From the NCBI GenBank assembly GCA_037139835.1, contig JBAXFQ010000003.1, positions 1 to 63,252 on the forward strand: 63,252 bases of DNA, read 5' to 3'. The notes beneath the pieces were generated by a model. It worked only from the letters and a program-made list of their open reading frames with translations. It was not told the DNA's origin and did no database searches. Shown here in pieces: positions 6,001-54,653 of the stretch. The first letter of the stretch is position 1; the number at the start of each line of letters is the position of its first letter. The stretch comes from Candidatus Nomurabacteria bacterium. Lineage in GTDB: Bacteria; Patescibacteriota; Minisyncoccia; Phycocordibacterales; UBA9973. Position numbers and translations under genes: made by a program.

Positions 6001-9000
6001 TAGGAGTTGTCCTGTTGTTCCTGCTGCTGTAGCTAGTATAGAAGTAGTACTGTTACCATATAGAACTCCATTAGTTGTGAATGTTCCTACTCCTGTTCCT
6101 CCTCTTGATACAGCTGTGTACTGTTCTGATCCTAGAGTAGTAGCACTATTCCAATATGTATTGTATCCATTTGTTCCTGATAGTGCAGATGCAAATGAAG
6201 ATGATGAAACTTTTTCAATTACTCCTGTTCCTGTATTTCTTGTGACTATGTCGTAACCACCAGCAGAAGTTGTAGGTGCGGTGGTTAGGGTTAGGGTGCT
6301 ACCGATGTTTGCTGTACCGTTTACGTCGAGTTTGTATCCGGGTGAGGTGGTGCCGATGCCAACACTCCCTGTCGTTGTAAAAAAATTACTAGGCTTATTA
6401 TAAATAATACTACCATTATTTAAATTCCAATTATCACGGGCAGGAACTCCTCCTCCATAGACATAAACAGAACTAACTGTCATTGCTTCAAAACCCGGCA
6501 ACGCAGCTGCACCAGCGCTTATTCCAATAGCTTGCAAATAATATTGGTTGCCTTGAGATACTCGATGTTTCAAAGTGAAATACCATCGACTATTAGTTGA
6601 ATCCCAAAATGGACCAGTCATTTGTACTCTATCTGCAGTGTAGCCCTGATCAGCCTGAACTTCCCATTGGGAATCATATAAAGCACCAGCTGGATTCATA
6701 CCACCAGACCAACGAGGACTATATAAGCCAGTACCATTAATATAATTATATGTACCAGTAATATTAAATTGAATAGAACCCCAAAAATAAGTACCTGCGG
6801 GTAATATAATGTCAACTGCTTGTTGAGCTACACCATTCGGAAAATCAACGAATAATACTTTTTCAGAACGAATACTTCCGATACGTGTACCCTGAGTTCT
6901 AATATAACCAGAAGTATTAATATCCCCCGAAACATCCAACTTGTACACCGGAGCAGTCATACCAATTCCGACGTTGCCGTTTGGTAATATTCTCATTGCT
7001 TCTGATGTGTTAGGAGAGAAAATTAAACCTGTAGTTGAATACATATTTAATCCTGAACTTTCAACATTTAAAGCACCGGCTTGTGTTCCATTACCCATAG
7101 TAAGACCAGCTGAAGCTGTATAACCACTACTTCCTACAGAACCTATTTGTAACTTAGCATTAGGAATCGTCGTCCCGATTCCTACGTTTCCGTTTTGTAA
7201 GATTGTCATAGCTGTAGGGTAAGCACCTGCGTTATACATATCGAAATTGATACTGTGGCTGGTCGCCTGTCGCAAACCCCAATAGTTATTCGATCCCGTA
7301 AGCAGGTAGTGTGTTGCAACTGATGCGGACGACGTCAAATCTCCTACCGAGTCATTTTCAGAACCGCCCAATCTGACCGTACCTGCTACATCTAATTTGG
7401 TTCCAGGATTAGTTATACCTATCCCTAGATTGCCAGTAGCTTGCAATGTCATCAATTGATCATTTGAATAAAATCCCCAAGTTAAAGCATTACTTGTTGA
7501 ACCAGAACTTGCATATTTAAACCCCATATATCCAGATTGATTTGTTCCAGTACCTACTCCTAAGAAAGGAGAAATTAAAAGATGTCCCGTTGTTAGATTT
7601 GGGGCTTTAACAAAACTACCCCATACATAAGTACCATCATCTGTAGCAGTTACATCCAACACTGCTGGACCTCCACTTCCTGTACCCCCATTACCTGAAA
7701 TAGTTAAACGAGATCCAGGTGATGTAGCATTAATCCCCACATTACCATTCCCCAATATCGTCATCTTTTCTGTAGGAGTATTGTCAGCTACACCAGTCAC
7801 TCCTGCCGTCGAAGTAAAGAAATGCATTGCTGAAGTTCCTGTACCAGTACTGATTCCTGATTTAAAATTTAAATCCCCTCCTGCAAGATCAGCTGTTCCT
7901 GCTATTGATCCACCAGAAGAAAGTGTGAGACCTTGTCCGGCTGTAGCTGCAGTTGTGTTTCTTTCCATCCAGATAGTATGTGCAGTTGTGCCATCGAAAG
8001 ATAAAGCTTGAGTTGGTGATGATGTTCCGATACCAACTGCTCCACTGCCATTAATTGTCAAAACTCTACCACTTGTGCCGTTATTAAAATAAAATCCTCC
8101 ACCGCTAACATTATTCAACCACATTGGTCCATTTGAAGAATCTATACCTAGTCCCGCATCATTATTCGTTCCTCCATAATCTTGAATTTTTAATCTAAAA
8201 CCATTTTCTCCAGTTGGATCAGAATAAACAGATTTATTTGATAACATAGTTCCGTCAACTTGCAATGAATACCCAGGTACCGTCGTCCCTATTCCCACAT
8301 TCGTTCCATTATCAAAAATCTGAGAATCACCAATAGCTGAACCAGTAGATGTAAATTTCGCTATTTTATTTTGTGTACCTGTCCCTGTGACTGGATTTGT
8401 AAGAGCTGTTTGATATGTAGTTGTATCTACACTCAATGTTCCATCAGCGGAATTTGTTTTCAAGAATCCATTTGTTGTAAATTTTGAAAGCTTGATAGTA
8501 TCTAGTGCCGAGCCAATAAGTATCGTATCTGCAGTTGTATTATTCGTTCCGATATTTATCGTCTTGCCTCCTGTTCCTGTTCCGATATTTATTATACCTG
8601 TCGTTCCAGAGTCGAGAGTGAGAGCTCCTGTTGTGCCTGTTGTAATATTGAGTGCGGAAGCTGCATTTGAATTTATATTTACTACTGCTCCGTTGATAGT
8701 AGTGTTGGCTCCAACTCTACCGAGTGTCAAAGCATTTTGATTAACTGCTCCTATATTTAATGCGACAGCTGAAGGTGCATCAACATTTGGAGTATAGACA
8801 TATCCAGAAATAGTAAGTGCTCCTGTTGAAGGGATAAATGAAAGTTGAGCTGAAGAAGTTTTGATAGCCATTCCTCCAGAGTTAGTCGTAACCCAAGTCG
8901 GATATACAGATGTCGCAGTCGCCGCATCATTCGTAATATTTGAGGTTATAGAAGTTTGAGCAGTTTCAGAAATGACAGCTGCAGGTACTGTTCCCAACTT

Positions 9001-10686: not shown

Positions 10687-10698
10687 AACTATTTTATT

Positions 10699-11349
10699 TT
10701 AGACAGCAGTTGCAGTAGCGGTGATCGTAGCAGTATAAGTACCAGCTGCGGCAAAGATACCATTCTGTCCAGCAGCAAAACAAACATTGGTTGCTTGACC
10801 AGCAAGAGGTGTTGGTGTAGCAAAAGTAGCTATATTTATAGGTGTTACTCCATTAAATCCACTATATTTTAGAGTTGCATTTGGAGTACCAGCAGTACCA
10901 CAATCAGCACCTGTTCCCCATGTAGTGGTATTAACCCATCCTGTTGATGCTTGTCTAACAGAAAAACCAAATTGAGTTGATGAAGCAGGTACACTCCAAA
11001 GTGCAGTAGTTAAAGGAGCATCGGTAAACTGATTTGCTCCACTCTTAAGTGCAGCAGTAGTAGAAGCTTGAACTGTAAGACCATACCCTGTTGCTGAGTT
11101 TGTTACTACTGTCCAAGTTGCACCAGTTGCAGAGATAGATGAGTTTGATCCAGTACCTATGTTTGGGGCCATGGTTATATCAGCAGGAGCAGTGATGGTT
11201 ACACCTGAAGTAACGTTTAGGGTAACAACTACAGCATCAGTTACTGCTGTTGCATTTGCAATCAGAGGTTCAAACGCTAAATAAAACATAGGCATTAACA
11301 GTAATGAAATTACTGAACTTGCTATAACTTTCTTAATATTATTTTTCAT
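10699..11349 (-). CDS. secreted beta-rich surface/fibre subunit candidate (WxL-like or SCPU-like by composition), paralogue B
   Basis: Signal peptide ending ...LIANA/TAV. Ser/Thr/Gly-rich body with ATWTVVTNSATGYGLTVQAS and LWSVPASS motifs. C-terminal strand GTYTATITATATAV. Near-identical to 14599-15252. Confidence 0.6.
   Translation of the reverse strand: MKNNIKKVIASSVISLLLMPMFYLAFEPLIANATAVTDAVVVTLNVTSGVTITAPADITMAPNIGTGSNSSISATGATWTVVTNSATGYGLTVQASTTAALKSGANQFTDAPLTTALWSVPASSTQFGFSVRQASTGWVNTTTWGTGADCGTAGTPNATLKYSGFNGVTPINIATFATPTPLAGQATNVCFAAGQNGIFAAAGTYTATITATATAV
10743..11330 (-). repeat. long direct repeat, copy B (pairs with 14643-15230; offset exactly 3,900 nt)
   Basis: Line-by-line comparison shows 10769-11208 is 100% identical to 14669-15108 (440 nt). 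Differences cluster at both gene ends. Confidence 0.95.
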
Positions 11350-14552: not shown

Positions 14553-14598
14553 GAATTTTATATCTTGTTGCTATATAAAATAATACAGCAAGAAAATT

Positions 14599-15252
14599 TT
14601 AAGCAGCTGTTGCTGTTGCTGTTATTGTAGCGGTATAAACTCCAGCTGCGGCAAAGATACCATTCTGCCCAGCAGCAAAACAAACATTGGTTGCTTGACC
14701 AGCAAGAGGTGTTGGTGTAGCAAAAGTAGCTATATTTATAGGTGTTACTCCATTAAATCCACTATATTTTAGAGTTGCATTTGGAGTACCAGCAGTACCA
14801 CAATCAGCACCTGTTCCCCATGTAGTGGTATTAACCCATCCTGTTGATGCTTGTCTAACAGAAAAACCAAATTGAGTTGATGAAGCAGGTACACTCCAAA
14901 GTGCAGTAGTTAAAGGAGCATCGGTAAACTGATTTGCTCCACTCTTAAGTGCAGCAGTAGTAGAAGCTTGAACTGTAAGACCATACCCTGTTGCTGAGTT
15001 TGTTACTACTGTCCAAGTTGCACCAGTTGCAGAGATAGATGAGTTTGATCCAGTACCTATGTTTGGGGCCATGGTTATATCAGCAGGAGCAGTGATGGTT
15101 ACACCTGAGTCGACATTGAGTGTCACGATCATAGTATCAGTTACTGCTGTTGCGTTTGCAATCAGAGGTTCAAACGCTAGATAAAACATAGGCATTAACA
15201 GTAACGAAATTACTGAGCTTGCTATAACTTTTTTTATAGAGATTTTTTTCAT
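14599..15252 (-). CDS. secreted beta-rich surface/fibre subunit candidate, paralogue A
   Basis: 217 aa. Differs from the 10699-11349 product only near the start of the signal peptide, just after the predicted cleavage site (TDTMIVTLNVDSG versus TDAVVVTLNVTSG) and at the C-terminal strand. Confidence 0.6.
   Translation of the reverse strand: MKKISIKKVIASSVISLLLMPMFYLAFEPLIANATAVTDTMIVTLNVDSGVTITAPADITMAPNIGTGSNSSISATGATWTVVTNSATGYGLTVQASTTAALKSGANQFTDAPLTTALWSVPASSTQFGFSVRQASTGWVNTTTWGTGADCGTAGTPNATLKYSGFNGVTPINIATFATPTPLAGQATNVCFAAGQNGIFAAAGVYTATITATATAA
14643..15230 (-). repeat. long direct repeat, copy A (pairs with 10743-11330)
   Basis: See copy B. Confidence 0.95.
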
Positions 15253-19386: not shown

Positions 19387-19538
19387 GTTTTTAAAAAAAT
19401 AGTCGAAACGACTAGTCCAGACACTTTACTATAAAGTATTAAATAAAGCAAGTCCCCACACCTATATTTTCTAAAATAAAAATATAGGTGTGGGGGCAAG
19501 CCCTTTATATCATCTATATATAAAAATAAGAATTTTTA

Positions 19539-20159
19539 TTATATACCAGTTATGAGATGAAAGGCTATCAATATAATAGGTGAAACTTTAGTCCAAAGAA
19601 AAATTATAAAAAACAAAAGTAAGAACATTCCCCACTTTTCTAAAAAGTTTTCTATATATCTATATTTATAAGGTAGGAACGAAAACATAATTTTAGAACC
19701 ATCAAGAGGTGGAATAGGTATTAAATTAAATAAAGCGAGAACTAAATTTAAAATAACTATAATAGAAGTAATCTTAAAGAATGGAGCTGACATTGGAATT
19801 CCTAACAAAGGTGCAAATCGGATAAGTAAACCGAAGAAAATCACCAAAACAAGATTGGCCAATATACCAGCAATAGCTACGAGGAAAGTTCCTTTCTTCT
19901 CATCTCTTAAATTTGCAGGATTATAAGGAACAGGCTTTGCCCATCCGATAACAAAACCAGCACTCATCAATACAAGAAGCAATGGAAGTATAACTGAACC
20001 AAAAGGATCAAGATGCTTTAGAGGATTTAGTGTGAGACGTCCACTATTGCGAGCTGTATTGTCGCCGAGAAGATAGGCTGAGTATCCATGAGCTACTTCA
20101 TGAACGACTACAGACATTATCAATACAATTATATAGAATATTCCATCAATCATTTGCAT
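19539..20159 (-). CDS. site-2 protease family (peptidase M50) membrane metalloprotease
   Basis: HEVAHG zinc motif in TM1, NLIPIPPLDGSK motif; polytopic. Confidence 0.85.
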   Translation of the reverse strand: MQMIDGIFYIIVLIMSVVVHEVAHGYSAYLLGDNTARNSGRLTLNPLKHLDPFGSVILPLLLVLMSAGFVIGWAKPVPYNPANLRDEKKGTFLVAIAGILANLVLVIFFGLLIRFAPLLGIPMSAPFFKITSIIVILNLVLALFNLIPIPPLDGSKIMFSFLPYKYRYIENFLEKWGMFLLLFFIIFLWTKVSPIILIAFHLITGI

Positions 20160-20234
20160 ATATTTTAATATAAAAGATTCCCTTACTTATGAGTTTGCAT
20201 TTATATGAACTATATGATAGCATGGAACTCACAT

Positions 20235-20480
20235 ATGGCAAAAGTCTGTGATATAACAAAAAAGGGCTCAATAATGGGTGGAGGATACTCCAACGTTGTT
20301 CGTGCTACCAAGTTCAATCCTACAGGCATGGTTCGTAAATATGCCAACCTTCAAAAGAAGCGTATCTACGTCCCTGAGCTTAAAAAGTACTTCCCTCTAA
20401 CTATTTCTACCAAGGCAATCAAAACAATCAACAAACACGGAGCCTATGCAGTATTAAAGAAAGCTGGAATCATAAAATAA
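20235..20480 (+). CDS. rpmB: 50S ribosomal protein L28
   Basis: MAKVCDITKKG... is an L28-type N-terminus. The ORF-track start at 20205 is probably too far upstream. Confidence 0.85.
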   Translation: MAKVCDITKKGSIMGGGYSNVVRATKFNPTGMVRKYANLQKKRIYVPELKKYFPLTISTKAIKTINKHGAYAVLKKAGIIK

Positions 20481-20510
20481 AAATCCTCACAATCGTGAGG
20501 ATTTTTATTT
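20480..20510 (+). terminator. intrinsic terminator after rpmB
   Basis: AAAATCCTCAC-aatc-GTGAGGATTTTTATTTT. Confidence 0.85.
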
Positions 20511-20517
20511 TGTATTT

Positions 20518-20636
20518 AGGTCGTATTTGAAATAGTTCTTAAGAAGGAACTTGCGCAGGCTGTCGAGCCGAGCAGAGCAATTTCCTAGTAAGGAAATATG
20601 CGTGTCCTTCGAAGGAATCTATTTCAAAGAAGACCT
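20518..20636 (+). ncRNA. structured repeat element, copy 1 (long imperfect hairpin with a conserved 56-nt branched core at 20549-20604); candidate small RNA or structured DNA site; strand tentative
   Basis: The core ACTTGCGCAG-[hairpin 1]-CGAGCAGAGCA-[hairpin 2]-ATGCGTG is shared with 23619-23674. Hairpin 1 is GGCT-gtcg-AGCC and hairpin 2 is ATTTCCT-agta-AGGAAAT. Outer stems: TTGAAATAG/CTATTTCAA and AGGTC/GACCT. Confidence 0.45.
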
Positions 20637-21507
20637 ATTTTGTATATACAAGTTTTATTCCATCTGACTCAAAAATAATATTGCCTAAGTCTGAAGTTTT
20701 TAAAAATGGAATATGAAGTGAGGTTAGTCTATCTAGGATATCTTTATGCGGATGACCATACTTATTCCCTTTATCTACTGAGATGATAGCAACTCTCGGA
20801 TTCACCTTCTCAAGCCAAGAAACACCCGATGAAGTATGTGACCCATGATGTCCAAGCTTCAGGACATCAGATTTTAAAGTACTATCTTTTTCATTCCAGC
20901 CAATCAGATTCTCAGTATAAGTTGTTGCATCCCCTGTGAACATAAATGAGTCTTTACCATACGTTAGCTTCCCTACTATCGAGCCATCATTACTATCAAA
21001 ATTCGACACATCTCTATCAGGAAAAATAATATCGAAATAAATATTTTTCTTATTATCAAGTATGATATGCATTCCTCTCTTTGCGATTATTTTCTTTATT
21101 TTATTTTTTACAATTTTGTTTTCTAAACTTTCATATACTTTCGAATCAGATGTTGCCCCATTTTCTAATATACTTCCCACTTTATAATTATCTATCAGAA
21201 GTGGAAACCCTCCGATATGATCCATATCTGGATGCGTAGCCACTATCATATCTATCGAGCGATCAGCAAAAGGCATAACCTTCGACAAACTAGATAAAAG
21301 TTTAGCATCTGGCCCTCCGTCTATAAGCATTTGCTTGCCATTAGGGGCTTCTATATAGATAGCATCCCCTTGCCCAACATCTAGAAATACAACTTTTAAA
21401 TATGGGCTGTTCTTATGTTGAAAAACGAAAAACCAGATACCAGCCGTCAAAATAACCAATAAAATCAATAGAATATATGGTAGATATTTTCTTCTTCTTT
21501 CCATCAC
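20635..21507 (-). CDS. membrane-anchored metallo-beta-lactamase-fold protein equivalent to the ComEC/Rec2 C-terminal domain
   Basis: N-terminal TM helix. VVFLDVGQGDAIYIE, HPDMDHIGG, GDA, LKLGHHGS motifs as in the ComEC MBL domain. Confidence 0.8.
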   Translation of the reverse strand: MMERRRKYLPYILLILLVILTAGIWFFVFQHKNSPYLKVVFLDVGQGDAIYIEAPNGKQMLIDGGPDAKLLSSLSKVMPFADRSIDMIVATHPDMDHIGGFPLLIDNYKVGSILENGATSDSKVYESLENKIVKNKIKKIIAKRGMHIILDNKKNIYFDIIFPDRDVSNFDSNDGSIVGKLTYGKDSFMFTGDATTYTENLIGWNEKDSTLKSDVLKLGHHGSHTSSGVSWLEKVNPRVAIISVDKGNKYGHPHKDILDRLTSLHIPFLKTSDLGNIIFESDGIKLVYTK

Positions 21508-21529
21508 AGTTAGATATTATAAATAATTT

Positions 21530-21567
21530 GTGTTCCGTTTAAGAATAATGCATATCTAACGGGACAC
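21530..21567. repeat. solo imperfect hairpin carrying the TCTAACGGG terminus motif
   Basis: GTGTTCCGTTTAAGA-ataatgcata-TCTAACGGGACAC, in the divergent spacer between the MBL gene and the SOD-like gene. Confidence 0.5.
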
Positions 21568-21608
21568 GTGTTATACTTCATATATTAACATTAAATAACA
21601 ATAAAAAC

Positions 21609-22217
21609 ATGGAAACATTTACACCGAAAACATTTGATATACCAAAATTAACAGGTATAAGCGAGAAAGCAATAGAAGAGCATCTAAAATTATATAAAGC
21701 TTACGTAGCTAATTCAAACTTGGTTTTAAATAAAATAAAAGAATACGAGAAAGATTTAGTTGCCAATGCTTATATTCTAAGCGAGCTTCATCGCCGTTTC
21801 GCTTTTGAATTCGGAGGCGTTCGTAATCACGAATATTATTTTACATCTCTTTCAAGTGGATCAAAATCACTTCCGGCTGATTCTAAATTAAAAGTAGAAA
21901 TAGAGAAAAGTGGTATTACTTTTGAAGTATGGCTAGCAAACTTCAAAGCATTAGCTATGACTCGCGGTATCGGATGGGCAATGCTTTACTATGACAAAGA
22001 AACCAATAGTCTTCTAACACAGTGGGTAGATGAGCAACACTTAGGTCATCTAGTTAGTGCTTCTCCTATCCTCGCTTTAGATATGTGGGAGCATTCATAT
22101 CTCTTCGATTATATTCCATCTGAAAAGAAAAATTATATAGAAGCCTTTTTTGCAAACTTGAACTGGGAAGTAATAGAAAGTAATTACGAAAATCAGGTTC
22201 TAGTTTCTAGTAATTAG
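21609..22217 (+). CDS. Fe/Mn superoxide dismutase family protein (divergent N-terminal motif)
   Basis: GGVRNHEYYF (compare GGH.NH..FW) and LDMWEHSYLFDY (compare D.WEHAYY). Confidence 0.75.
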   Translation: METFTPKTFDIPKLTGISEKAIEEHLKLYKAYVANSNLVLNKIKEYEKDLVANAYILSELHRRFAFEFGGVRNHEYYFTSLSSGSKSLPADSKLKVEIEKSGITFEVWLANFKALAMTRGIGWAMLYYDKETNSLLTQWVDEQHLGHLVSASPILALDMWEHSYLFDYIPSEKKNYIEAFFANLNWEVIESNYENQVLVSSN

Positions 22218-22225
22218 TGGCTAGT

Positions 22226-22256
22226 AAAAATACATCGACATAATCGATGTATTTTT
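22226..22256. terminator. bidirectional terminator between the convergent SOD-like and ComEC genes
   Basis: AAAAATACATCGA-cataa-TCGATGTATTTTT. Confidence 0.85.
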
Positions 22257-22290
22257 ACTTACTAGAAACTAATCACTAGCTTACTAACTA

Positions 22291-23577
22291 CTAATCTTTA
22301 AATATCCACCAAGATAAAAAACTATAAATTAAGATTGTAAATACTAGTGGAAATGATTGAATTGAGATACTAGCGAAAGATAAAGATCCGAAAAAATGAA
22401 TCACACTTAATATATATAATAGTATCAAGTATGTTATATACCCTGCTGCTATAGACAATAGAGGTAAGATAAATCCTAACATACCAGTTATAAATATAAA
22501 TAACATAGCAGTAGGAATAAGAAGTAATATTAGAAAATTAGCAGGTAAAGAGACTAAAGATAAAACTCCAGTTAAATACAAAAGTATAGGCAAGACAGAA
22601 ATGGTAGCAGCGACAGTGCTGGCTACCATTTCTCGTATTCCAAAACGGAGAGGTAAAAATTTAAACCACCTTAAAACTTTCGGTGTTAAAAATAAAACCC
22701 CGCCAGTCGCAATGAAAGATAGTTGGAAAGACATGTCGACTAGAACTCTCGGATCATAAGCTACCATAAGTAGTCCTGCTACTATGAGAGCTCGCCCTGC
22801 GACGTATCGCCTATCTGTAATCCTACCCAAGAGCATAATGGTGGCCATAATACCCGCACGAATAGCAGTCGAAGATGCTCCTGTCATAATGATAAATAAA
22901 AGTATGACGACTATTCCTATGACTATTGAAAGGGTTTTTGAGAGTATTGTGCCGAAAGTTTTCATCACTCCGTCGGCCACGATAGATACGTTGTAGCCAG
23001 AGAGTGCGATCATATGGATAGTCCCTGTATCTATGAATTCCTTATTTGTCTCTTCATCAAAGCCACCTCGCACTCCAAGGATCAAGCCATTGGCCAGGTC
23101 GCTCTCAGGCATTGGAATAACATTATTTATATTTCTAATAAATGAGTTGCGAAGTTTAAATAATAAAGTTTTTATTTTATTACCATTGCCACTAGAAATA
23201 ATTTCCATGTCTGCATTTTTAATTAAATAATAAATATCTTTATTAGCTAGATATCTTTTATAATTAAATTCTTTCCCCACACTAGTTGTAAAGTTTTCTG
23301 GCTCTTCTAATACACCTTTGACTTTCACTTCATCTCCATAAGAAACTTCTACATCCCTTCCGACAAAAACTAAAATATTTACATCGTTGTCTTTCAATTT
23401 AATATTTAAATGTTTATTCTTTAGTCGGATATCTGGATCCTCACTAACCTGCCCCTCCAGAGATACACTCTTCCCTACAACACTACTATAGTCCGGAGCC
23501 TTCGGTAGATAAAAGAAAAATCGCACGATGGCGACTGCTATCAAAATCAAAACTATTAAAATTTCTTTTTTAGACAT
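22291..23577 (-). CDS. comEC: ComEC/Rec2 DNA-uptake channel, N-terminal OB (DUF4131-like) plus competence domain only (no MBL domain)
   Basis: N-terminal TM plus an OB-like segment (VSLEGQVSEDP...YGDEVKVKGVLEEP). TGTIHMIALSGYNVSIVA is the competence-domain signature. Polytopic C-terminal part. The ATG at 23577 is preferred over the TTG at 23601 used by the ORF track. Confidence 0.85.
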   Translation of the reverse strand: MSKKEILIVLILIAVAIVRFFFYLPKAPDYSSVVGKSVSLEGQVSEDPDIRLKNKHLNIKLKDNDVNILVFVGRDVEVSYGDEVKVKGVLEEPENFTTSVGKEFNYKRYLANKDIYYLIKNADMEIISSGNGNKIKTLLFKLRNSFIRNINNVIPMPESDLANGLILGVRGGFDEETNKEFIDTGTIHMIALSGYNVSIVADGVMKTFGTILSKTLSIVIGIVVILLFIIMTGASSTAIRAGIMATIMLLGRITDRRYVAGRALIVAGLLMVAYDPRVLVDMSFQLSFIATGGVLFLTPKVLRWFKFLPLRFGIREMVASTVAATISVLPILLYLTGVLSLVSLPANFLILLLIPTAMLFIFITGMLGFILPLLSIAAGYITYLILLYILSVIHFFGSLSFASISIQSFPLVFTILIYSFLSWWIFKD

Positions 23578-23596
23578 ACGATTTAACAAGCCTGAA

Positions 23597-23696
23597 ATCA
23601 AAAGTATGTTTTAGAATGACTTGCGCAGCACGACGGTGCGAGCAGAGCAAAATCTCAGCAGAGATTTATGCGTGCATTATAAAATATACTTTTGAT
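23597..23696 (+). ncRNA. structured repeat element, copy 2 (core 23619-23674); fills the rnhA-comEC spacer; strand tentative
   Basis: Same 56-nt core. Hairpin 1 is GCAC-gacg-GTGC and hairpin 2 is AAATCTC-agca-GAGATTT. The ~23-nt outer arm ATCAAAAGTATGTTTTAGAATGAC pairs with GCATTATAAAATATACTTTTGAT. The 3' arm overlaps the last rnhA codons. Confidence 0.45.
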
Positions 23697-24141
23697 GTAA
23701 GGCGCTTAATGTTGCTATCTCATCTGCACGATCATTATAAATGTGCCCCGAATGTCCTTTCACTTTCTGCCAAATTATTTTACCTTTAAACTCACGCACA
23801 AGCCCGATAAGTTCTTGCCATAAATCTTGATTCAAAACTGGTTCCTTTTTAGAAGTTCGCCATCCATTCTTCTCCCATCCGAAAATCCAATTAGTAACTC
23901 CCCCTAGGACATAGGCCGAGTCAGCATGGATAGTCACTGTATATTCATGATGATGCTTATTCATATATTTAAGTGCTTCTATGGCAGCCTGAAGCTCCAT
24001 ACGATTGTTTGTCGTATCTTTATGATAACCTCCCAACTCTTCTATTATTTTACCTCCATCGACAATAACAGTCCCCCACCCACCAGGCCCAGGATTCCCC
24101 AATGACGACCCGTCTGTATATATTTGTATTTCTTTATTCAT
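23677..24141 (-). CDS. rnhA: ribonuclease HI
   Basis: IYTDGSSLGNPGPGGWG, ...NNRMELQAAIEAL..., 154 aa. Confidence 0.93.
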   Translation of the reverse strand: MNKEIQIYTDGSSLGNPGPGGWGTVIVDGGKIIEELGGYHKDTTNNRMELQAAIEALKYMNKHHHEYTVTIHADSAYVLGGVTNWIFGWEKNGWRTSKKEPVLNQDLWQELIGLVREFKGKIIWQKVKGHSGHIYNDRADEIATLSALHQKYIL

Positions 24142-24262
24142 ATGATTTGAGTAAGAATTTTTTTAAAGTCTCATGAAAAATGGTCTGGCACCGGCTCCCG
24201 TCCCCCTCGTCCGAGGACCTTTTGAATGAGAGCTTTGAAAAAATTCTGACTTTTACATTATA

Positions 24263-25921
24263 TCAAATAATATCAACAATTCTTAATCTTAATTCTGTTC
24301 TGCCTGCAAAAGTACTTTTCTCAAATGTAGCTACGAGATTAATCCTCTCTCCTTCCGATATTTTACTTTTAAAACTATCTCTGGTTTTAAAGAAAGCAAT
24401 AGCTTTTATTTGCTTACCATTACTATTTAAAAAACTTAATTCTAAATGATTTTTTTCTTTTCCAAATTCTTTTAATGTATGTATCGGTAATTCTTTAAAA
24501 AGAAATTTTGGTTTTGGATTCCCTGCTCCATAAGGAGCGAGCTTATCTATTACATTAAAGTTTCCGGTATTAACATCATCTATACTTATAAACGCCTCTG
24601 CTTCAGTCCCAACTATATCTTCTTCTACTTCTCTATCTTCACCATATACTTTTAATATTCTTTCTTCTAAAAAATGTATTTCTTCATGAGACACAGCAAA
24701 CCCTCCAGCACCCGCATGCCCACCAAAAGACGTCATTGTATTTTCTGGTAAAGAATTCATTATATCTACCAAGTTTATATTCCCCCATGAACGACAAGAG
24801 CCCTTCAACATTTCACTTCCATCAGAGCCCCATACAAAAACTGGCCTTTTATATTCTTCTACTATTTTTGAAGCGATAATTCCCAGCACTCCTATCCTCC
24901 AGCTTGGATTCCCTATGACTATTACTTTCTTATCTTCTCTTTTACTTAAGGTTTTATTTACCTCTTTCATAATGTTCGCCACCATATATTTACGGTCGTC
25001 ATTTATCTTTGCCAAATTATCAGCTGATGCTTTTGCTATTACCGAGTCCATAGCAGAAAGTGCTTCAAAGGCCATCATTGGATCTGCCATACGAGAGGCT
25101 GCGTTTATACGAGGAGCTAAAGTAAAAGTTACATCTTCTTCATTAAGTTTTGTAATATCGACAGATGCTTTACGAAAAATTTCTACAAGGCCAGGTCTTC
25201 GTCCTTTTTGTAAAACTTTTAAACCATAAGTAGCTAAAACTCTATTCTCGTCCAAGAGTGGAACTTGATCTGCAAGAGTTGCAATACCTACCATGTCGAG
25301 AAGCCATTTCTCCCAGCCTTTACTTATACCCCAATACTCTCCGTACTTTGATATCATCGCTTGGATAAGTTTAAAAGCAATCCCTGCTCCACAGAGCATT
25401 TTATCAGGATAGATACATCCAACTTGTTTTGGATTGAGTATTGCATAAGCATTTGGCAATCCATCAATACTCGGTAAGTGGTGGTCAGTAATAATCACAT
25501 CGATACCTCCAGCAGTTGCTTCTATGACTTCTGATATAGCAGTAATTCCTAAATCAAAAGTTATTAAAAGTTTTATTTCTTGATCTATAAAATTCTTAAT
25601 TGCATCCATATGTAGTCCATATCCTTCATCGTGCCTGTCTGGAATATATATCGAGAAATTTTCATAACCAATCTTTTTAAAGAAGTCATTCATTATTACA
25701 GCAGCGGGAATACCATCGCAGTCATAGTCAGTATAGATAACTATTTTCTCTTTTGCTTCTGTAGCTTCAAAAATACGCACACAAACTTTTTCCATATCTT
25801 TCATCAAAAAGGGGTCATATAAATGATTCTCGTAAGAAGGATATAGAAATTTATCTTTATCTTCATCTTTTATTCCCCTATTCTTCAAAAGTAGATCTAA
25901 AAATTCAATTTCATTCGGCAT
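24263..25921 (-). CDS. recJ: single-stranded-DNA-specific exonuclease RecJ (DHH/DHHA1)
   Basis: DYDCDG, DRHDEGYG, ITDHH and GGHAGAGG motifs. Confidence 0.92.
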   Translation of the reverse strand: MPNEIEFLDLLLKNRGIKDEDKDKFLYPSYENHLYDPFLMKDMEKVCVRIFEATEAKEKIVIYTDYDCDGIPAAVIMNDFFKKIGYENFSIYIPDRHDEGYGLHMDAIKNFIDQEIKLLITFDLGITAISEVIEATAGGIDVIITDHHLPSIDGLPNAYAILNPKQVGCIYPDKMLCGAGIAFKLIQAMISKYGEYWGISKGWEKWLLDMVGIATLADQVPLLDENRVLATYGLKVLQKGRRPGLVEIFRKASVDITKLNEEDVTFTLAPRINAASRMADPMMAFEALSAMDSVIAKASADNLAKINDDRKYMVANIMKEVNKTLSKREDKKVIVIGNPSWRIGVLGIIASKIVEEYKRPVFVWGSDGSEMLKGSCRSWGNINLVDIMNSLPENTMTSFGGHAGAGGFAVSHEEIHFLEERILKVYGEDREVEEDIVGTEAEAFISIDDVNTGNFNVIDKLAPYGAGNPKPKFLFKELPIHTLKEFGKEKNHLELSFLNSNGKQIKAIAFFKTRDSFKSKISEGERINLVATFEKSTFAGRTELRLRIVDII

Positions 25922-35615: not shown

Positions 35616-37817
35616 TCAGAATCCTAGATTAAATAGAAACGAGGAAAAAGGAGTTTTAATGACCTGCCAAATACGGCCAATTAAAGATATTTTTTTGTTT
35701 TGTATGTCTGGATTTTTTATATTAATCTTATCTTTTAATTCTAGACTATCTATTATAGATTGTTGTTTTTTGTGTATAATAATTGATTTTTTAATTTTTG
35801 TTATTTTTTCTTTTTTAAGGATATTTGTGATTTCTTTTGATTTTTCTTTAGAAATATCAACTGCTATTTCTTTTTTAATTTTATTATCTATTTCGACTGT
35901 CTTAATTGGTATTTCTTTTTCAGCATTTTCACTCTGAACTAAATTGGGGGTTGAGCCTTGTTGTTTAGAAAAATTATTTAATATTTCACTCCATGGTTTA
36001 TGTAAAATAGCAGGAATAGCATAAGATGTTGACCAAACTCTAGTGTCAACATCATCAGTATTTGTATCTGATAATCCTCCATCAACTTGCTGCCTTGAAG
36101 TTAAAAAGTCTTCTGCTTTTAAAATTTGATTATTACTAAACATAGATTGCAAGACCCAAGAAGTTGAAAAAGTATTACCAAATCCACCATCTGTTCCTTG
36201 GCTTGAAATAATATACAATTTTCCCTTTGTAATTGAACCTATTACACCATTTATATTTTCAAATCCAGATAATGCCTGTATCGCAGCTGCTGTTATGTCT
36301 ATACTCCCCCATGAACCATTTGAAGTCTGCTGAGAAATTATATAATTAATATCTTTTTGAATAATTTCATCAGCAGAATTATAACCAGAATTTTTAAGAA
36401 TAATTAATGCAAAAATGTCATCATTATCAAGTGCCTTATCTCCAAACTGTACACCATCAAAACTATCAGTAATCTTTTTTATATAATCTGTGCTTGTTCC
36501 TGTATATGGATTAATATCTAAAGACATTAATGCCATAGCATGTCTTTCGTTGTCGGTTAATACAGGTGAAGTAAAAGAATTATTTTTTAAATAATTTGAT
36601 ATATTATTTTTTAAATCAAAACTGCCTCCCGCTGCTGCACTAATTGCAACCCAGTCTGTATACATATCATTACTAAATGAACCATCACTTTTTTCATTTT
36701 TAGATAAAAATTCTAGAGCTTTCGAAATTGAAAAAGCTTTCTTGGTAATATCAGGAATAGAAGTGACGCTTCTTCCACTCCCCTGAGAGACCACTGAAGA
36801 TTCAGACACAATTAGATTTTCTGTTGGCCAATAATAATCTTCTTTTATTCCAACATTGTAAGATCCTACTGGTATAGATGAAAATTTAGCTTCTCCAGTG
36901 ACTCCATCAACTAATGATTTAATATCATCTTTTGGAGACCAAGGATTATTAGGATCTGGCGAAGTCACTCCTACTGTAACCCCTGTTCGTATTGCCCAAA
37001 TATTATTCACATAATCATATTTTTCTGCAGTTACTATTAAGTCATCTTTATTTGTAATAGATTTATTATTTAAAACAACTTTATTCTGTGGACCAAAATA
37101 TATGTATATCTTTTCATTACCAACTAAAATATCTTTATCCATACCGACTTGAGGATATGAATCATTTACAACATACTGCCAGTTTTCACAAAGTTCACTT
37201 AACCCATCGGGAATTAAGCACTTCATATAGAGAGAACCGAATCCATTATTGTAATCCAAATTAGAAATTGAGAAACTGTCTGTATTTTGATCTATACCAT
37301 AAAGAACTGCTAAGACACTTCTTTTATCTATACTGTGTTTTATATTACTTTTATCAGGAATATCAATATTCCCAACATCGGGCAAGTCGTAATATCCGTT
37401 ATAAATAATAGTATCTCCATTTCTAATAATAACCTTTTCTTTTAATTTTTCTGGAACAACAATATCTTTTACTATTACTTTTCTTACAACCTCCATAGCG
37501 CTATTTAACGCTTTATCTTTAACATCATAAGTAACAGTATAATCACCCGCTTTTGTAGTATCAACATTATTTACAATTACAATACTAGAAGTAATGCCTC
37601 CATCTGTCTCATCAATAGCTGTAGCTCCAGCATCTTTATAAGTATCGCCAACATTTATTGAAATGCTTACATCCCCTACTAGACTAATAACAGGAGGTAT
37701 AGTGTCAACTACTACAGCAGGAATATTAACATCTTCAGCTGAAACAAAATTAATATTAAATATAATAAGACTTAAACTGAATAAAACTATAATTTTCTTT
37801 AAAATATTTTTTTTCAT
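35616..37817 (-). CDS. secreted protein: Ig-like (DUF5011-type) domain plus prenyltransferase/squalene-oxidase-repeat (alpha/alpha toroid) domain plus Lys-rich tail
   Basis: Signal peptide. PVISLVGDVSISINVGDTYKDAGATAIDETDGGIT...GDYTVTYDVKD. Repeats SDGSF, SNGSWGS, TDGGFG, VDGGL with trailing W/Y, as in terpene-cyclase-fold repeats. Confidence 0.6.
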   Translation of the reverse strand: MKKNILKKIIVLFSLSLIIFNINFVSAEDVNIPAVVVDTIPPVISLVGDVSISINVGDTYKDAGATAIDETDGGITSSIVIVNNVDTTKAGDYTVTYDVKDKALNSAMEVVRKVIVKDIVVPEKLKEKVIIRNGDTIIYNGYYDLPDVGNIDIPDKSNIKHSIDKRSVLAVLYGIDQNTDSFSISNLDYNNGFGSLYMKCLIPDGLSELCENWQYVVNDSYPQVGMDKDILVGNEKIYIYFGPQNKVVLNNKSITNKDDLIVTAEKYDYVNNIWAIRTGVTVGVTSPDPNNPWSPKDDIKSLVDGVTGEAKFSSIPVGSYNVGIKEDYYWPTENLIVSESSVVSQGSGRSVTSIPDITKKAFSISKALEFLSKNEKSDGSFSNDMYTDWVAISAAAGGSFDLKNNISNYLKNNSFTSPVLTDNERHAMALMSLDINPYTGTSTDYIKKITDSFDGVQFGDKALDNDDIFALIILKNSGYNSADEIIQKDINYIISQQTSNGSWGSIDITAAAIQALSGFENINGVIGSITKGKLYIISSQGTDGGFGNTFSTSWVLQSMFSNNQILKAEDFLTSRQQVDGGLSDTNTDDVDTRVWSTSYAIPAILHKPWSEILNNFSKQQGSTPNLVQSENAEKEIPIKTVEIDNKIKKEIAVDISKEKSKEITNILKKEKITKIKKSIIIHKKQQSIIDSLELKDKINIKNPDIQNKKISLIGRIWQVIKTPFSSFLFNLGF

Positions 37818-37820
37818 AAC

Positions 37821-38348
37821 TTAAAATGATTCTTGCTTCCAACTAATAATATCTCCAGCTTTTAAAATATAATTTGAAACTCCGACTGAAGCTTTCTTAT
37901 TATCAACATAGTAAATCCAATAATTTCCTGGAACTCCTTTTACTCCATTTATCTCATTAATAAAAGCTCCTAATCCTAAATGCTTCGTATACTTAAAGCT
38001 AAATGTGTCATCCTTTAAATTTTCTTCTTCTAATATTTTCATTGCATCAAACACAGAAGAATTTTTCTTAATTTCTGTATTATATGTTTTACCTAAAACT
38101 TCCAATGAAACTTTTATCTTGTTTAGATCTGAATTATCTGCAACTTGTTTAACTTCATATTTTATTTCTATTTTATTTTTAGTTTCTAAATTATTGTTTT
38201 CTACACCATTAACGACTATAGGACTAATCTCTTTTTTAAATTCTTTTGCTTCTTTCTTTCTTAATAAACTAAAATAAGATAATAAGATAATGGCAAATAA
38301 TACTAAAAATATAATGACGATAAAAATTTTCTTTCTGTTTTTTTTCAT
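37821..38348 (-). CDS. membrane-anchored DUF4430 (transcobalamin-C-terminal-like) domain protein
   Basis: C-terminal GAFINEINGVKGVPGNYWIYYVDNKKASVGVSNYILKAGDIISWK fits the DUF4430 pattern. First gene after the cobalamin riboswitch. Confidence 0.65.
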   Translation of the reverse strand: MKKNRKKIFIVIIFLVLFAIILLSYFSLLRKKEAKEFKKEISPIVVNGVENNNLETKNKIEIKYEVKQVADNSDLNKIKVSLEVLGKTYNTEIKKNSSVFDAMKILEEENLKDDTFSFKYTKHLGLGAFINEINGVKGVPGNYWIYYVDNKKASVGVSNYILKAGDIISWKQESF

Positions 38349-38370: not shown

Positions 38371-38535
38371 ATAAAAGCCCCTCAGACTAGGGCCGGAGGG
38401 GCTTTTAACCAAATATAAAAATATATTCTCCTGCTCGGGAAACACCTTTATATTAAGACCGGACTTGTCCCATTTAGGGCATTACCGTTGCGGCACAGTA
38501 GAGGAATCAAACCTCATTTCCAAATATAATGGTTT
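38371..38535 (-). promoter_or_regulatory. cobalamin (B12) riboswitch with a terminator expression platform
   Basis: Minus strand GGAAATGAGGTTTGATTCCTCTACTGTGCCGCAACGGTAATGCC...GGGACAAGTCCGGTC resembles the conserved core (GGGAA..GGTG.AA.TCC...CCGC.AC.GTAA) and the B12 box (AGTC.GG..C). It is followed by GCCCCTC-cggccctagtct-GAGGGGCTTTTAT. Confidence 0.7.
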
Positions 38536-38552
38536 AAATTTTAAAAATACAA

Positions 38553-41669: not shown

Positions 41670-41706
41670 GAAATACCCTCAAAAATTACATTTTTGAGGG
41701 TATTTC
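41670..41706. terminator. perfect 16-bp palindromic terminator after the MFS gene
   Basis: GAAATACCCTCAAAAA-ttaca-TTTTTGAGGGTATTTC. Confidence 0.85.
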
Positions 41707-45037: not shown

Positions 45038-45043
45038 TAAATT

Positions 45044-45077
45044 AAAAAAACCTGAGAATTAATTCTCAGGTTTTTTT
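45044..45077. terminator. bidirectional terminator between convergent genes
   Basis: AAAAAAACCTGAGAATT/AATTCTCAGGTTTTTTT. Confidence 0.85.
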
Positions 45078-46854
45078 AATTTATTTCAAATCCCCCAGCT
45101 TGAATATTCCAAAGCTTTTTATATATACCATCTTCAATTTTTATAAGTTCATTATGGGTACCATCTTCAATTATTTCACCCTGAGAAATAACTATTATAC
45201 GACTCATACCTTTAATAGTAGAGAGTCTATGAGCTATAACTATCACAGTCTTTCCTTTTATTAAATTATGAAGGGCATCTTGTATAAGCATTTCTGATTC
45301 TGAATCTAAGGCCGAAGTAGCTTCATCAAGGACAAGTATAGGTGCATTTTTTAATATTGCTCTAGCTATAGCTACGCGTTGACGTTCACCACCAGAGAGT
45401 TTTATACCTCGTTCTCCTACATATGTATCATAACCTTTTGGTAGATTTGAAATAAATTCATCGCAATGAGCAAGACCCGCTGCTTTTATTACTTCTTCAT
45501 CTGTAGCATCTCGTTTACCATAACGAATATTTTCCATCAAAGAACGATGAAAAAGAACTGGATCTTGAGGTACAAATCCAATCTGTTCACGTAAACTTTT
45601 CTGAGAAATTGTAGAAATATCAACTCCATCTATTAAGATTTTTCCTTGTTGAAGATTAAATAACCTCATAAGTAGTCTCACAAAAGTAGACTTACCTGCC
45701 CCCGATGAACCAACTAGAGCAATTTTATCTCCAGCTTTTATCTTTAATGAAAAATTATCAAATACTTTTTGATTATTATTTTCATATACATAAGTCACAT
45801 TATCGAAAACAACTTCTCCTTTAACATCTTTAATTTCATTTAACACATCGTCATCTACAGAATATGGGGTATTTAGAACTAAAGCCATCTCTTGAGCATC
45901 TGCAAAACCATCATAATAAGTACGAATAATGGCATGAAAAGACCAAAGACTATTAGTCAAACGACCTAAATATGTTTGTATCAATATCATTACAGGGACT
46001 CCAATAATTCCTAATTTCCAATCTCCAATAGCAAACCAAAAAATTATAAATTCAATTATAACTACATATGCACTCTGTATAGAAGACAAACCTCCCCATA
46101 AATACCAATTTAAAACTGTGGCCTTATTCTGCTCTTGTATGACTCCACCAACTCTATCCCTTTCGTATTCATGTCCGGCAAAAAGTTGAATTGAGGAGTG
46201 ATTACTTATCGAATCTGCTAATGCTCCTGTTGTTTTTGTATCAGATATTGCTGCTAAAATATCAAATTTAAGTTTTAATTTAACATAAATTAAAGCTGTT
46301 AGAATAAAAACAACACAGAAAATTAATAAAATATATGAATATTTTGGGACTAGAGTATAGATAGCTAAAACCGTACCAATTGCTCTAATAATAAGAGGCA
46401 AACCATTATCTATCATCATATCCATCAATCTTTCAAAAGATCTAGCATATTTACCAATTTTTTGAGTGAGAGAACCGCCAAAATTATTTGCAAAGAAAGT
46501 ATGTGAGTGCCCTATCATATATGAAAAGGCTTGCTCTCGAAGTCCTGCCATAATACTTGCTTGAAAATATGAATTTATAAAACTATAGCCTCTAGTTACA
46601 AATAAACGAATTAAACCCAATATAAAGATAAATATTAATATATGATAAGCCTGTGGAGCAAAATTATAATTAGTAGTACTTAATACACTCCAAAGTTTAA
46701 GAAACTGAAATGGTATATATATTTCAAGAAGTGATGCAATTATTACCCCAAAGATTACACAAAAAAACGATACCTTAAATCGTTTGATAACTTGCCAAAA
46801 ATATTTTAGAACAAGTCCTGTATGTAAATTTTTATAATCTTTTCCTTTATCCAT
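45076..46854 (-). CDS. ABC exporter, fused permease/ATPase (MsbA-like)
   Basis: GSSGAGKST, LSGGERQR, ILVLDEATSALD; six N-terminal TM segments. Confidence 0.92.
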   Translation of the reverse strand: MDKGKDYKNLHTGLVLKYFWQVIKRFKVSFFCVIFGVIIASLLEIYIPFQFLKLWSVLSTTNYNFAPQAYHILIFIFILGLIRLFVTRGYSFINSYFQASIMAGLREQAFSYMIGHSHTFFANNFGGSLTQKIGKYARSFERLMDMMIDNGLPLIIRAIGTVLAIYTLVPKYSYILLIFCVVFILTALIYVKLKLKFDILAAISDTKTTGALADSISNHSSIQLFAGHEYERDRVGGVIQEQNKATVLNWYLWGGLSSIQSAYVVIIEFIIFWFAIGDWKLGIIGVPVMILIQTYLGRLTNSLWSFHAIIRTYYDGFADAQEMALVLNTPYSVDDDVLNEIKDVKGEVVFDNVTYVYENNNQKVFDNFSLKIKAGDKIALVGSSGAGKSTFVRLLMRLFNLQQGKILIDGVDISTISQKSLREQIGFVPQDPVLFHRSLMENIRYGKRDATDEEVIKAAGLAHCDEFISNLPKGYDTYVGERGIKLSGGERQRVAIARAILKNAPILVLDEATSALDSESEMLIQDALHNLIKGKTVIVIAHRLSTIKGMSRIIVISQGEIIEDGTHNELIKIEDGIYKKLWNIQAGGFEIN

Positions 46855-54618: not shown

Positions 54619-54653
54619 AAATAGCCCCGACAACTTCGTTGTCGGGGCTATTT
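54619..54653. terminator. strong bidirectional terminator
   Basis: AAATAGCCCCGACAA-cttcg-TTGTCGGGGCTATTT. Confidence 0.9.

Follow-up and report, generated by a model that had tools for sequence, protein, structure and literature searches.

Two copies of an apparently undescribed palindromic repeat with a branched core in a Nomurabacteria contig: probably selfish DNA of Parcubacteria

The DNA that was analysed, referred to here as the window, is a stretch of 63,252 nucleotides from a contig of Candidatus Nomurabacteria bacterium. Two copies of a palindromic element of approximately 110-120 bp were annotated in it, each consisting of a 56-nt core and arms of about 30 nt per side (Table 1). They are surrounded by genes for EF-G, the ribosomal proteins S7, S12 and L28, an M50 protease, a split ComEC, Fe/Mn SOD, RNase H, RecJ, PGK and TIM. 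Copy 1 is found between the L28 gene, which has an intact canonical terminator of its own (20483-20508), and the stop codon of a gene for a metallo-beta-lactamase-fold (MBL) protein. Copy 2 fills the spacer between the genes for RNase H and ComEC (the "Competence" part), both of which are encoded on the minus strand; the tblastn match of this ComEC begins at residue 9. One arm of copy 2 reaches into the RNase H gene, and a homologous arm occurs at the same locus in the related genome L032 (matched loci are given here by such numbers), where it is located outside the RNase H reading frame.

Table 1 Coordinates of the two element copies and of adjoining features in the window
Feature	Position	Strand	Remarks
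Left 10-bp direct repeat TATTTTGTAT	20506..20515	+	flanks copy 1; possible target-site duplication, suggestive only
Copy 1, 5' outer arm AGGTCGTATTTGAAATAGTTCTTAAGAAGGA	20518..20548	+	pairs with 20605-20636; arm of ~33 nt
Copy 1, core (56 nt)	20549..20604	+	covariance model 85 bits, E = 6e-23
Copy 1, helix b1	20551-20554 with 20572-20575	+	
Copy 1, hairpin 1	20558-20569	+	loop GTCG
Copy 1, helix b2	20577-20579 with 20599-20601	+	
Copy 1, hairpin 2	20580-20597	+	loop AGTA
Copy 1, 3' outer arm TCCTTCGAAGGAATCTATTTCAAAGAAGACCT	20605..20636	+	end overlaps stop codon of MBL gene
MBL gene	20635-21507	-	stop codon overlapped by 3' arm of copy 1
Right 10-bp direct repeat TATTTTGTAT	20636..20645	+	flanks copy 1
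Copy 2, 5' outer arm GCCTGAAATCAAAAGTATGTTTTAGAATG	23590..23618	+	13 nt upstream of ComEC ATG at 23577 (- strand)
Copy 2, core (56 nt)	23619..23674	+	covariance model 91.6 bits, E = 7e-25
Copy 2, helix b1	23621-23624 with 23642-23645	+	
Copy 2, hairpin 1	23628-23639	+	loop GACG
Copy 2, helix b2	23647-23649 with 23669-23671	+	
Copy 2, hairpin 2	23650-23667	+	loop AGCA
Copy 2, 3' outer arm CATTATAAAATATACTTTTGATGTAAGGC	23675..23703	+	carries RNase H stop codon and about the last 8 codons (ALHQKYIL*)
RNase H gene	23677-24141	-	Pfam RNase_H match ends at residue 144 of 154

The two cores form a direct repeat that aligns without gaps over 56 nt at 71% identity. The blocks ACTTGCGCAG, CGAGCAGAGCAA and TATGCGTG are the same in both, and the block pattern has these two matches in the window while none was obtained in 100 shuffles. 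In both hairpins the stem letters differ between the copies but pairing is kept, and each copy is closed by a long outer stem. The plus strands of the 119-nt segments have minimum free energies (MFE) of -50.5 kcal/mol (copy 1) and -48.4 kcal/mol (copy 2), with z-scores of -6.9 and -7.2, while the minus strand folds are about 9 kcal/mol less stable. The gapless alignment, the compensated hairpins and the pairing of the outer stems had all been described in the initial annotation and were reproduced here, the hairpins also in at least 107 homologues.

The same annotation had anticipated that homologues should exist, and these proved to be numerous. One genome per GTDB species was scanned with the pattern CTTGCGCAG-N8-14-GAGCAGAGCAA, written as CTTGCGCAGN{8,14}GAGCAGAGCAA, and at least 118 stretches of genome contigs matched, seven of which are chance matches in other phyla. 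At least 111 full copies, which also have hairpin 2 and the 3' block UAUGYGUG (both outside the search pattern), were found in at least 77 species-level assemblies. Among the matches listed, every lineage-level name belongs to the Parcubacteria/Paceibacteria (Giovannoni-, Nomura-, Zambryski-, Kaiser-, Yonath-, Taylor- and Vogelbacteria, RAAC4_OD1_1, Paceibacterota, Minisyncoccia). Many of the matched records are labelled "uncultured Candidatus Saccharibacteria". We do not trust these labels because at least L032, which is among them, is a close relative of the window, with amino-acid identities of 88% for L28 and 79% for EF-G. Two sets of loci that had been considered as orthologous (L066/L109/L110 and L013/L048/L084/L111) are in fact paralogous copies, each set within a single MAG.

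With the covariance model R1, about 20 more copies were detected in the same loci; they are divergent and often adjoin a canonical copy. A full-model search of the window with filters off retrieved only the two known copies. Elsewhere, the covariance model finds up to three copies per 8 kb as compared to two in the 63 kb of the window, and we roughly estimate the copy number at 20-30 per megabase. The exact pattern had no match in viral contigs, and BLAST of the 119-nt element had none in phage and plasmid collections. At gathering thresholds, the Rfam 15 families reported for the window are limited to AdoCbl and a tRNA, neither of them over the element. At E <= 10, applied to positions 20000-24500, weak hairpin-driven leader and miRNA models cover the element, the best with 30 bits versus a cut-off of 50. 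This is in line with the initial annotation, which had matched the element to no RNA family. A profile of the encoded peptide (LAQRDGASRA...) recovered five short reading frames from a large protein database but not the host proteins. As no description of the element was found in the literature on its sequence and on palindromic repeats and motifs of the CPR, the palindromic repeat family is new and apparently undescribed.

An alignment of 126 copies has 93% paired cells and a covariation score of 0.65, where shuffles score 0.18 and slid registers 0.06-0.13, so that conservation of structure over sequence, as originally noted, applies to the family at large. Among 107 copies, hairpin 1 is paired in 96.5% of the cells with double changes in three of its four pairs, hairpin 2 is paired in 99.2% with double changes in six of seven pairs, and all 14 pairs of the outer stem covary. 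The options for the inner region were compared on the 126 copies, aligned only to the two hairpins and the outer stem. The inner stem GCGCA/UGCGU of the initial annotation was abandoned, since only 2 double changes stand against 21 broken cells. The MFE alternative to this stem consists of two helices. In helix b1 (UUGC/GCAG, around hairpin 1) three pairs vary, with 7 double changes versus 8 broken cells; in helix b2 (GCA/UGC, around hairpin 2) there are 12 double changes versus 6 broken cells, with compensated forms such as GGA/UCC, GCG/CGC and ACA/UGU. Because b1 and b2 are supported over GCGCA/UGCGU, the plus strand, when single-stranded, is predicted to fold into a three-way junction, composed of the arm stem, stem-loop 1 (b1 and hairpin 1) and stem-loop 2 (b2 and hairpin 2).

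The unpaired blocks and both loops (GACG in stem-loop 1 and AGCA in stem-loop 2 of the family) are near-invariant across copies. Part of the core invariance is due to how the copies were found, since 20 of the bases were already set by the search pattern. This does not apply to the 3' block or to the two loops, GACG and AGCA, which are still at least 90% conserved. The loop sequences were never seen inverted. The plus strand is the more stable one in 101 of 107 copies with RNA parameters and in 105 of 107 with DNA parameters, and it folds better because of the G-U pairs U3-G27 and G29-U53. The stems of hairpins 1 and 2 are almost devoid of such pairs: 1151 of their cells are Watson-Crick, 5 are G-U and 4 are A-C, which corresponds to 99% Watson-Crick and 0.4% G-U. 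Differences in hairpin 2 between copies within one genome are all fully compensated.

For the 72 intergenic copies listed, the plus strand of the element was compared to the flanking reading frames. It is sense to them in 17 cases and antisense in 28, while 20 copies lie between convergent and 7 between divergent frames. Copies often fill the whole spacer, leaving no more than 20-40 nt to the reading frame on either side. An association of orientation with replication or transcription was considered but dropped, since the bias is only weak (43:66 relative to GC skew, 46:63 relative to the local gene strand). Outer arms with an A-run followed by a T-run, which resemble a bidirectional terminator, occur in 20 of 111 copies, versus 4 with the opposite arrangement. 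Terminator calling in the window reported neither copy. A search for promoters inside the element gave nothing convincing, and none is conserved in the variable arms.

Among the matches listed, about 20 copies are located in frame, free of stop codons and in either orientation inside housekeeping genes. The host genes, confirmed by Pfam, code for LeuRS, GatB, MiaA, TsaD, an IscS-like protein, TruB, Dus, MPG, PGM/PMM and UvrD. Clean in-frame indels of approximately 27-35 residues relative to homologues were seen in ComEC, the IscS-like protein, TruB, Dus and MiaA. Within LeuRS or GatB, an example of the encoded peptide is LAQRDGASRAIPQQRDMR. About 14 copies in plus orientation were judged to reside in real genes, and all of them are in the same phase, though all three plus frames are open. 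Because the intragenic copies are in frame and stop-free in both orientations, they are most plausibly translated rather than spliced out. It is evident that intragenic copies later decay into ordinary protein sequence; TruB of L062 and of L044 contain decayed versions of the element.

At one and the same site, close relatives may carry the element, lack it or have another copy in its place. The spacer between the L28 and MBL genes is filled in the window and empty in L016 and L032. In L106, which has 98.5% (EF-G) and 94% (MBL) amino-acid identity to the window, this spacer carries a copy in opposite orientation, with hairpins and arms other than those of the window. Between the MBL and SOD genes, where the window has no copy, one is present in L016. 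The RNase H-ComEC spacer is occupied in the window, in L016, in L005 and in L032. Either orientation occurs at the same site: the L032 copy in this spacer has homologous arms but is inverted relative to copy 2, and the same is seen inside genes, for MiaA (minus in L053, plus in L090) and for Dus (plus in L080, minus in L116).

The outer arms fall into sub-families which are common to several genomes. The arm of copy 1 resembles a sub-family present in L005, L016, L037, L081, L085, L100, L101 and L106, with the part AAATAGTTCTT of its 5' arm being common to sub-family A arms of other genomes, and the arm of copy 2 resembles those of L032 and L008. The outer arms are thus not unique sequences; their pairing stands as originally described. 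In some genomes the cores are identical and yet the outer 15-20 nt of each arm form locus-specific perfect palindromes. There are also genome-specific core variants, for example TATGTCGTG, that are the same in the copies of that genome. Copies of sub-family D are flanked on either side by GAGCGAG in direct orientation, and this motif resembles the core block GAGCAGAGC.

Conserved terminal inverted repeats were not found among the 111 copies listed, the termini being specific for the locus or the sub-family. The 10-mer TATTTTGTAT occurs three times in the window (0.84 expected), and two of these occurrences flank copy 1 exactly. The empty site of L016, which has the form TTTTATTTT joined to CTATAC, fits a duplication at copy 1. 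A fixed target-site duplication is not general, however, as a direct-repeat scan of the 111 copies gave only this 10-mer and a 9-mer at L097. The search for a mobilising gene covered 873 reading frames from the 8 kb around each copy: phmmer with an approximate query sequence for the IS608 TnpA had no match among them, and clustering yielded housekeeping families only. Housekeeping genes are also all that is encoded between closely spaced copies. Pfam analysis of 26 proteins from the window detected no transposase or integrase. No related autonomous insertion sequence was found in the window or the loci by a partial search, and weak or partial tests identified no HUH protein or Rep-like protein near copies or in the window.

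We consider it probable (about 0.6) that both copies are selfish palindromic DNA repeats of Parcubacteria (CPR) which are mobile or were so recently, of the same kind as MITEs, REPINs or the Rickettsia palindromic elements (RPEs), and that they are neither an RNA gene nor a cis-regulatory RNA. We favour DNA over a functional RNA because of the mixed orientation, the flips at one site, the empty or replaced sites, the in-frame copies and the near absence of G-U pairs. Where the initial annotation had offered the choice between a functional RNA and a structured DNA site, the latter fits better and is the more likely of the two. It seems that the folded single plus strand is read by something, since loops and unpaired blocks are near-invariant, the loops are never inverted and the plus strand folds better. 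The invariant unpaired bases and loops may be what a trans-acting enzyme recognises or cleaves; such an enzyme would be structure-specific, would act on single-stranded DNA in its folded form and is conceivably of the HUH (Y1) or the recombinase type. The wobbles U3-G27 and G29-U53 are compatible with single-stranded DNA as well as with RNA. Complementarity of the stems would be maintained by hairpin-templated correction (template switching at quasi-palindromes) and not by selection on RNA, and through the same process the arms would diverge locus by locus. Such correction of DNA quasi-palindromes predicts fully compensated Watson-Crick stems, while RNA helices under selection normally show wobble intermediates. 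Core flips might result from recombination or template switching between the inverted arms. Many intergenic copies may be situated at the apex of terminator-like hairpins, and insertion at hairpin apexes, extension of palindromes and gene conversion of cores may all contribute.

Several observations speak against a mobile element. No transposase, integrase or HUH protein was found by the weak or partial tests that were applied, and there is neither a consistent target-site duplication nor a conserved terminal inverted repeat. Identical cores with locus-specific arms are not predicted by simple cut-or-copy transposition. Selfish repeats are normally species-specific; unpaired blocks that are near-invariant across at least 77 species are unusual for them and could point to a function for the host.

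Such a function is the basis of a different explanation, in which the element is a module that the host has domesticated, situated at the apex of hairpins between genes and with its core under host selection. It might serve as a bidirectional terminator, as a protector of mRNA 3' ends or RNase III site, or as a site for nucleoid or topology proteins, as has been proposed for REP/BIME and SPRITE. The excess of convergent over divergent copies (20 versus 7), the preferred A-run/T-run order of the outer arms (20 versus 4), the copies that span whole spacers and the conservation of the core across many species would all agree with this. However, the same spacer lacks the element in the close relatives L016 and L032, copy 1 adjoins the intact L28 terminator and does not replace it, intragenic copies cannot be terminators, and a hairpin that acts symmetrically has no need for a core that is asymmetric and invariant in sequence. 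We thus regard domestication by the host as unlikely. Even less so can we support a functional structured RNA on the plus strand, as put forward in the initial annotation. This might be a small RNA, a ribozyme that cleaves itself, or a signal for processing or stability, and the covariation would then reflect RNA selection. Strong covariation in all helices, strand-specific near-invariance of junction bases and loops, better folding of the plus strand in 101 of 107 copies and the two wobbles are what such an RNA would show, and multi-copy dispersal is typical of some bacterial ribozymes. Nevertheless, no Rfam family was found over the element even at E <= 10, the variable arms show no conserved promoter, and in 28 of the 72 intergenic cases the plus strand is antisense to both neighbours. 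Flips and replacement at one locus, in-frame intragenic copies in both orientations that appear to be translated rather than excised, and a G-U content of 0.4% in hairpins 1 and 2 (5 G-U versus 1151 Watson-Crick cells) argue in the same direction, so that an RNA function seems quite unlikely to us.

The core might also spread passively and without any enzyme, being copied between AT-rich hairpins by replication template switching or gene conversion, with the inner arms (about 8-10 nt) acting as microhomology. Cores that are identical within a genome, including variants such as TATGTCGTG, but are combined with locus-specific outer arms would follow directly, as would the lack of a general target-site duplication and of a neighbouring transposase; both orientations are expected when homology arms are palindromic. 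We nonetheless rate passive spread as very unlikely, for it explains neither the invariance of unpaired bases and loops across at least 77 species, nor insertions into coding sequence without an earlier hairpin, nor the 10-bp direct repeat around copy 1. A more speculative version of the mobile reading, which is rather unlikely, is that the three-way-junction core is the active module of an undescribed kind of mobile element. This would be a single-stranded DNA element that is placed at hairpin apexes by a possibly HUH-like enzyme, or else a small catalytic nucleic acid that cuts and joins itself. It would jointly explain a core that is ultra-conserved throughout a class of CPR bacteria, the locus-specific palindromic arms, the direct repeats of the GAGCGAG type at both hairpin feet and the absence of a neighbouring transposase.

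Genomes of CPR bacteria, including Parcubacteria, are among the smallest and most streamlined known. Some 20-30 copies per megabase, even within genes for aminoacyl-tRNA synthetases, tRNA modification and repair, are unexpected in such genomes. The element affects annotation and assembly, as reading frames are extended or interrupted and repeats can break contigs, and strain-level dynamics could be followed with it. That the interior is invariant while stems and arms are free suggests recognition of a folded single strand, and the element could therefore be used as bait for the responsible enzyme. For the discovery of RNA motifs it is a case for caution, because textbook compensatory changes can arise in DNA palindromes that have no RNA function.

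Judged by behaviour, RPEs appear to be the closest known system, followed by REPIN/RAYT systems and MITEs, while other systems are similar in single aspects. In the attC sites of integrons, conservation lies in the folded single strand and in a few unpaired bases rather than in the stem sequence, and long attC sites can have branched tips. Our element resembles them in that the folded strand and unpaired bases rather than the stem sequence are conserved. However, the alignment contains no R or L boxes (RYYYAAC / GTTRRRY), there are no arrays of cassettes in the same orientation and no intI nearby, and copies are dispersed and also occur inside housekeeping genes. The AAV ITR has a T- or Y-shaped fold with a long stem and two small hairpins, exists in flip and flop orientations and carries GAGC-type repeats beside the stem. 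The likeness is one of architecture only (a branched fold, both orientations, the core block GAGCAGAGC and GAGCGAG on both flanks of sub-family D). Our element is chromosomal, interspersed and bacterial, no Rep-like protein was found with it, and there is no sign of relatedness.

Bacterial MITEs (Correia, ERIC, BOX, RUP, SPRITE) are small non-autonomous repeats that form long hairpins and are usually intergenic but sometimes intragenic or terminator-like (PMC10969869). Patescibacteria receive no mention in a 2024 review of MITEs in prokaryotes (PMC10969869). Our element shares with MITEs the small size and the folding into long hairpins. The defining features of a MITE are conserved terminal inverted repeats, target-site duplications and a parent insertion sequence to which it is related. 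The pattern of our element is the reverse, with an interior that is invariant, termini that vary, and neither conserved terminal inverted repeats nor a fixed target-site duplication.

REP and REPIN sequences, which are mobilised by RAYTs (HUH Y1 transposases), are short hairpin repeats with tens to hundreds of copies that are recognised as folded single-stranded DNA. They have genome-specific sequence variants and lack a classical target-site duplication and terminal inverted repeats. The element likewise is a short multi-copy hairpin repeat with genome-specific variants and without such duplications or terminal repeats, and it too may be recognised as folded single-stranded DNA. REPs are extragenic only, have a 5' GTAG beside a simple hairpin, and their hallmark is a RAYT gene flanked by REPs. 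In our case about 20 copies are intragenic, and no RAYT gene was seen near copies in a weak test with an approximate query.

RPEs are palindromic repeats of approximately 100-150 bp which frequently occur in frame in unrelated housekeeping genes and are translated (PMC10969869). Our element is equally a palindrome in this size range, is dispersed in the reduced genome of a host-dependent bacterium, and is inserted in frame and without stop codons in housekeeping genes, here from LeuRS to UvrD and including ComEC. We know of no mobilising enzyme for RPEs, and the same applies here. With the element, "protein-coding palindromes" would be known from two independent cases, the first being Rickettsia, and both from host-dependent bacteria with reduced genomes. 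The likeness is one of behaviour, and the phylum is another one; every lineage-level name among the matches listed is Parcubacteria/Paceibacteria. RPE families are confined to one genus, while the core of our element is common to at least 77 species-level assemblies from many named lineages of Parcubacteria. In addition, and unlike RPEs, it joins an invariant asymmetric core with two hairpins to fast-evolving arms, and it occurs in both orientations. The family thus stands out by its unusually broad range and by an inverted pattern of conservation, in which the branched core is invariant and the arms are free to change.

A second type of element was found in five of the homologous loci (regions of about 8 kb around element matches in other assemblies), which has the canonical architecture but is built from other blocks (CUUGCGAG / GAGCnCGAGGAA / UAUCCGUG). 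In L014, L066 and L109 it is arranged head-to-head with a canonical copy at a distance of about 50-90 nt, while in L036 the two occur in tandem. This suggests that the second-type elements and the canonical element belong to a wider superfamily. At another locus, L064, a leucyl-tRNA synthetase gene (L064 3-2294) is the host of an element copy; its product has a NUDIX domain match at residues 164-277, between the editing and the catalytic domains.

Positions of second-type elements and of features in the window (L loci are numbered in their own coordinates; the hairpins are examples among others)
Feature	Sequence	Position	Strand
Second-type element	L014	6785-6867	
Second-type element	L066	6942-7023	
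Second-type element	L109	4875-4956	
Second-type element	L096	6086-6168	
Second-type element	L036	3085-3167	
Metallo-beta-lactamase-fold (MBL) gene, ComEC part	window	20635-21507	-
Fe/Mn superoxide dismutase (SOD) gene	window	21609-22217	+
Competence/DUF4131 gene, ComEC part	window	22291-23577	-
AdoCbl (B12) riboswitch, 64 bits	window	38417-38548	-
AT-rich perfect hairpins, intergenic	window	19457-19492, 41673-41703, 45038-45083, 54620-54652	

The two element copies of the window flank a three-gene block on either side. Within this block (20635-23577) ComEC is divided over two minus-strand genes with the SOD gene between them, and the same gene order is found in the relative L016. In the stretch that separates the start of the MBL gene from the SOD gene, the window carries a 9-bp inverted repeat (GTTAGATAT...ATATCTAAC; 21508-21570) whose arms are about 36 nt apart. 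A divergent element copy of L016 (L016 3382-3466) is located at this very site, and the inverted repeat may be what is left of a copy that the window once had.

Other repeats occur elsewhere in the window. A sequence unit some 47-63 nt long (...GTCGTCCCGATGCCGACGTTGCC) is present 15 times between 2300 and 8400, at spacings of 114-1362 nt (mostly 200-335), and 2321-2490 is duplicated at 6194-6363 (170 nt, 85% identical). This region, with a GC content of about 0.40-0.43, above that of the remainder, looks like a very large gene for a repetitive protein, probably a surface protein. A 300-nt direct duplicate (10696-10995 and 14596-14895, 96% identity) spans the ends of two reading frames, 10699-11349 and 14599-15252, which are paralogues of about 216 aa each and have no Pfam match. 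The riboswitch is located upstream of the minus-strand genes 37821-38348 and 35616-37817.

The intergenic spacers of the window contain numerous long, perfect AT-rich hairpins, which are matched weakly, on both strands, by the covariance model built from element copies. They are probably bidirectional terminators, and are of the kind whose apex could receive an element insertion.
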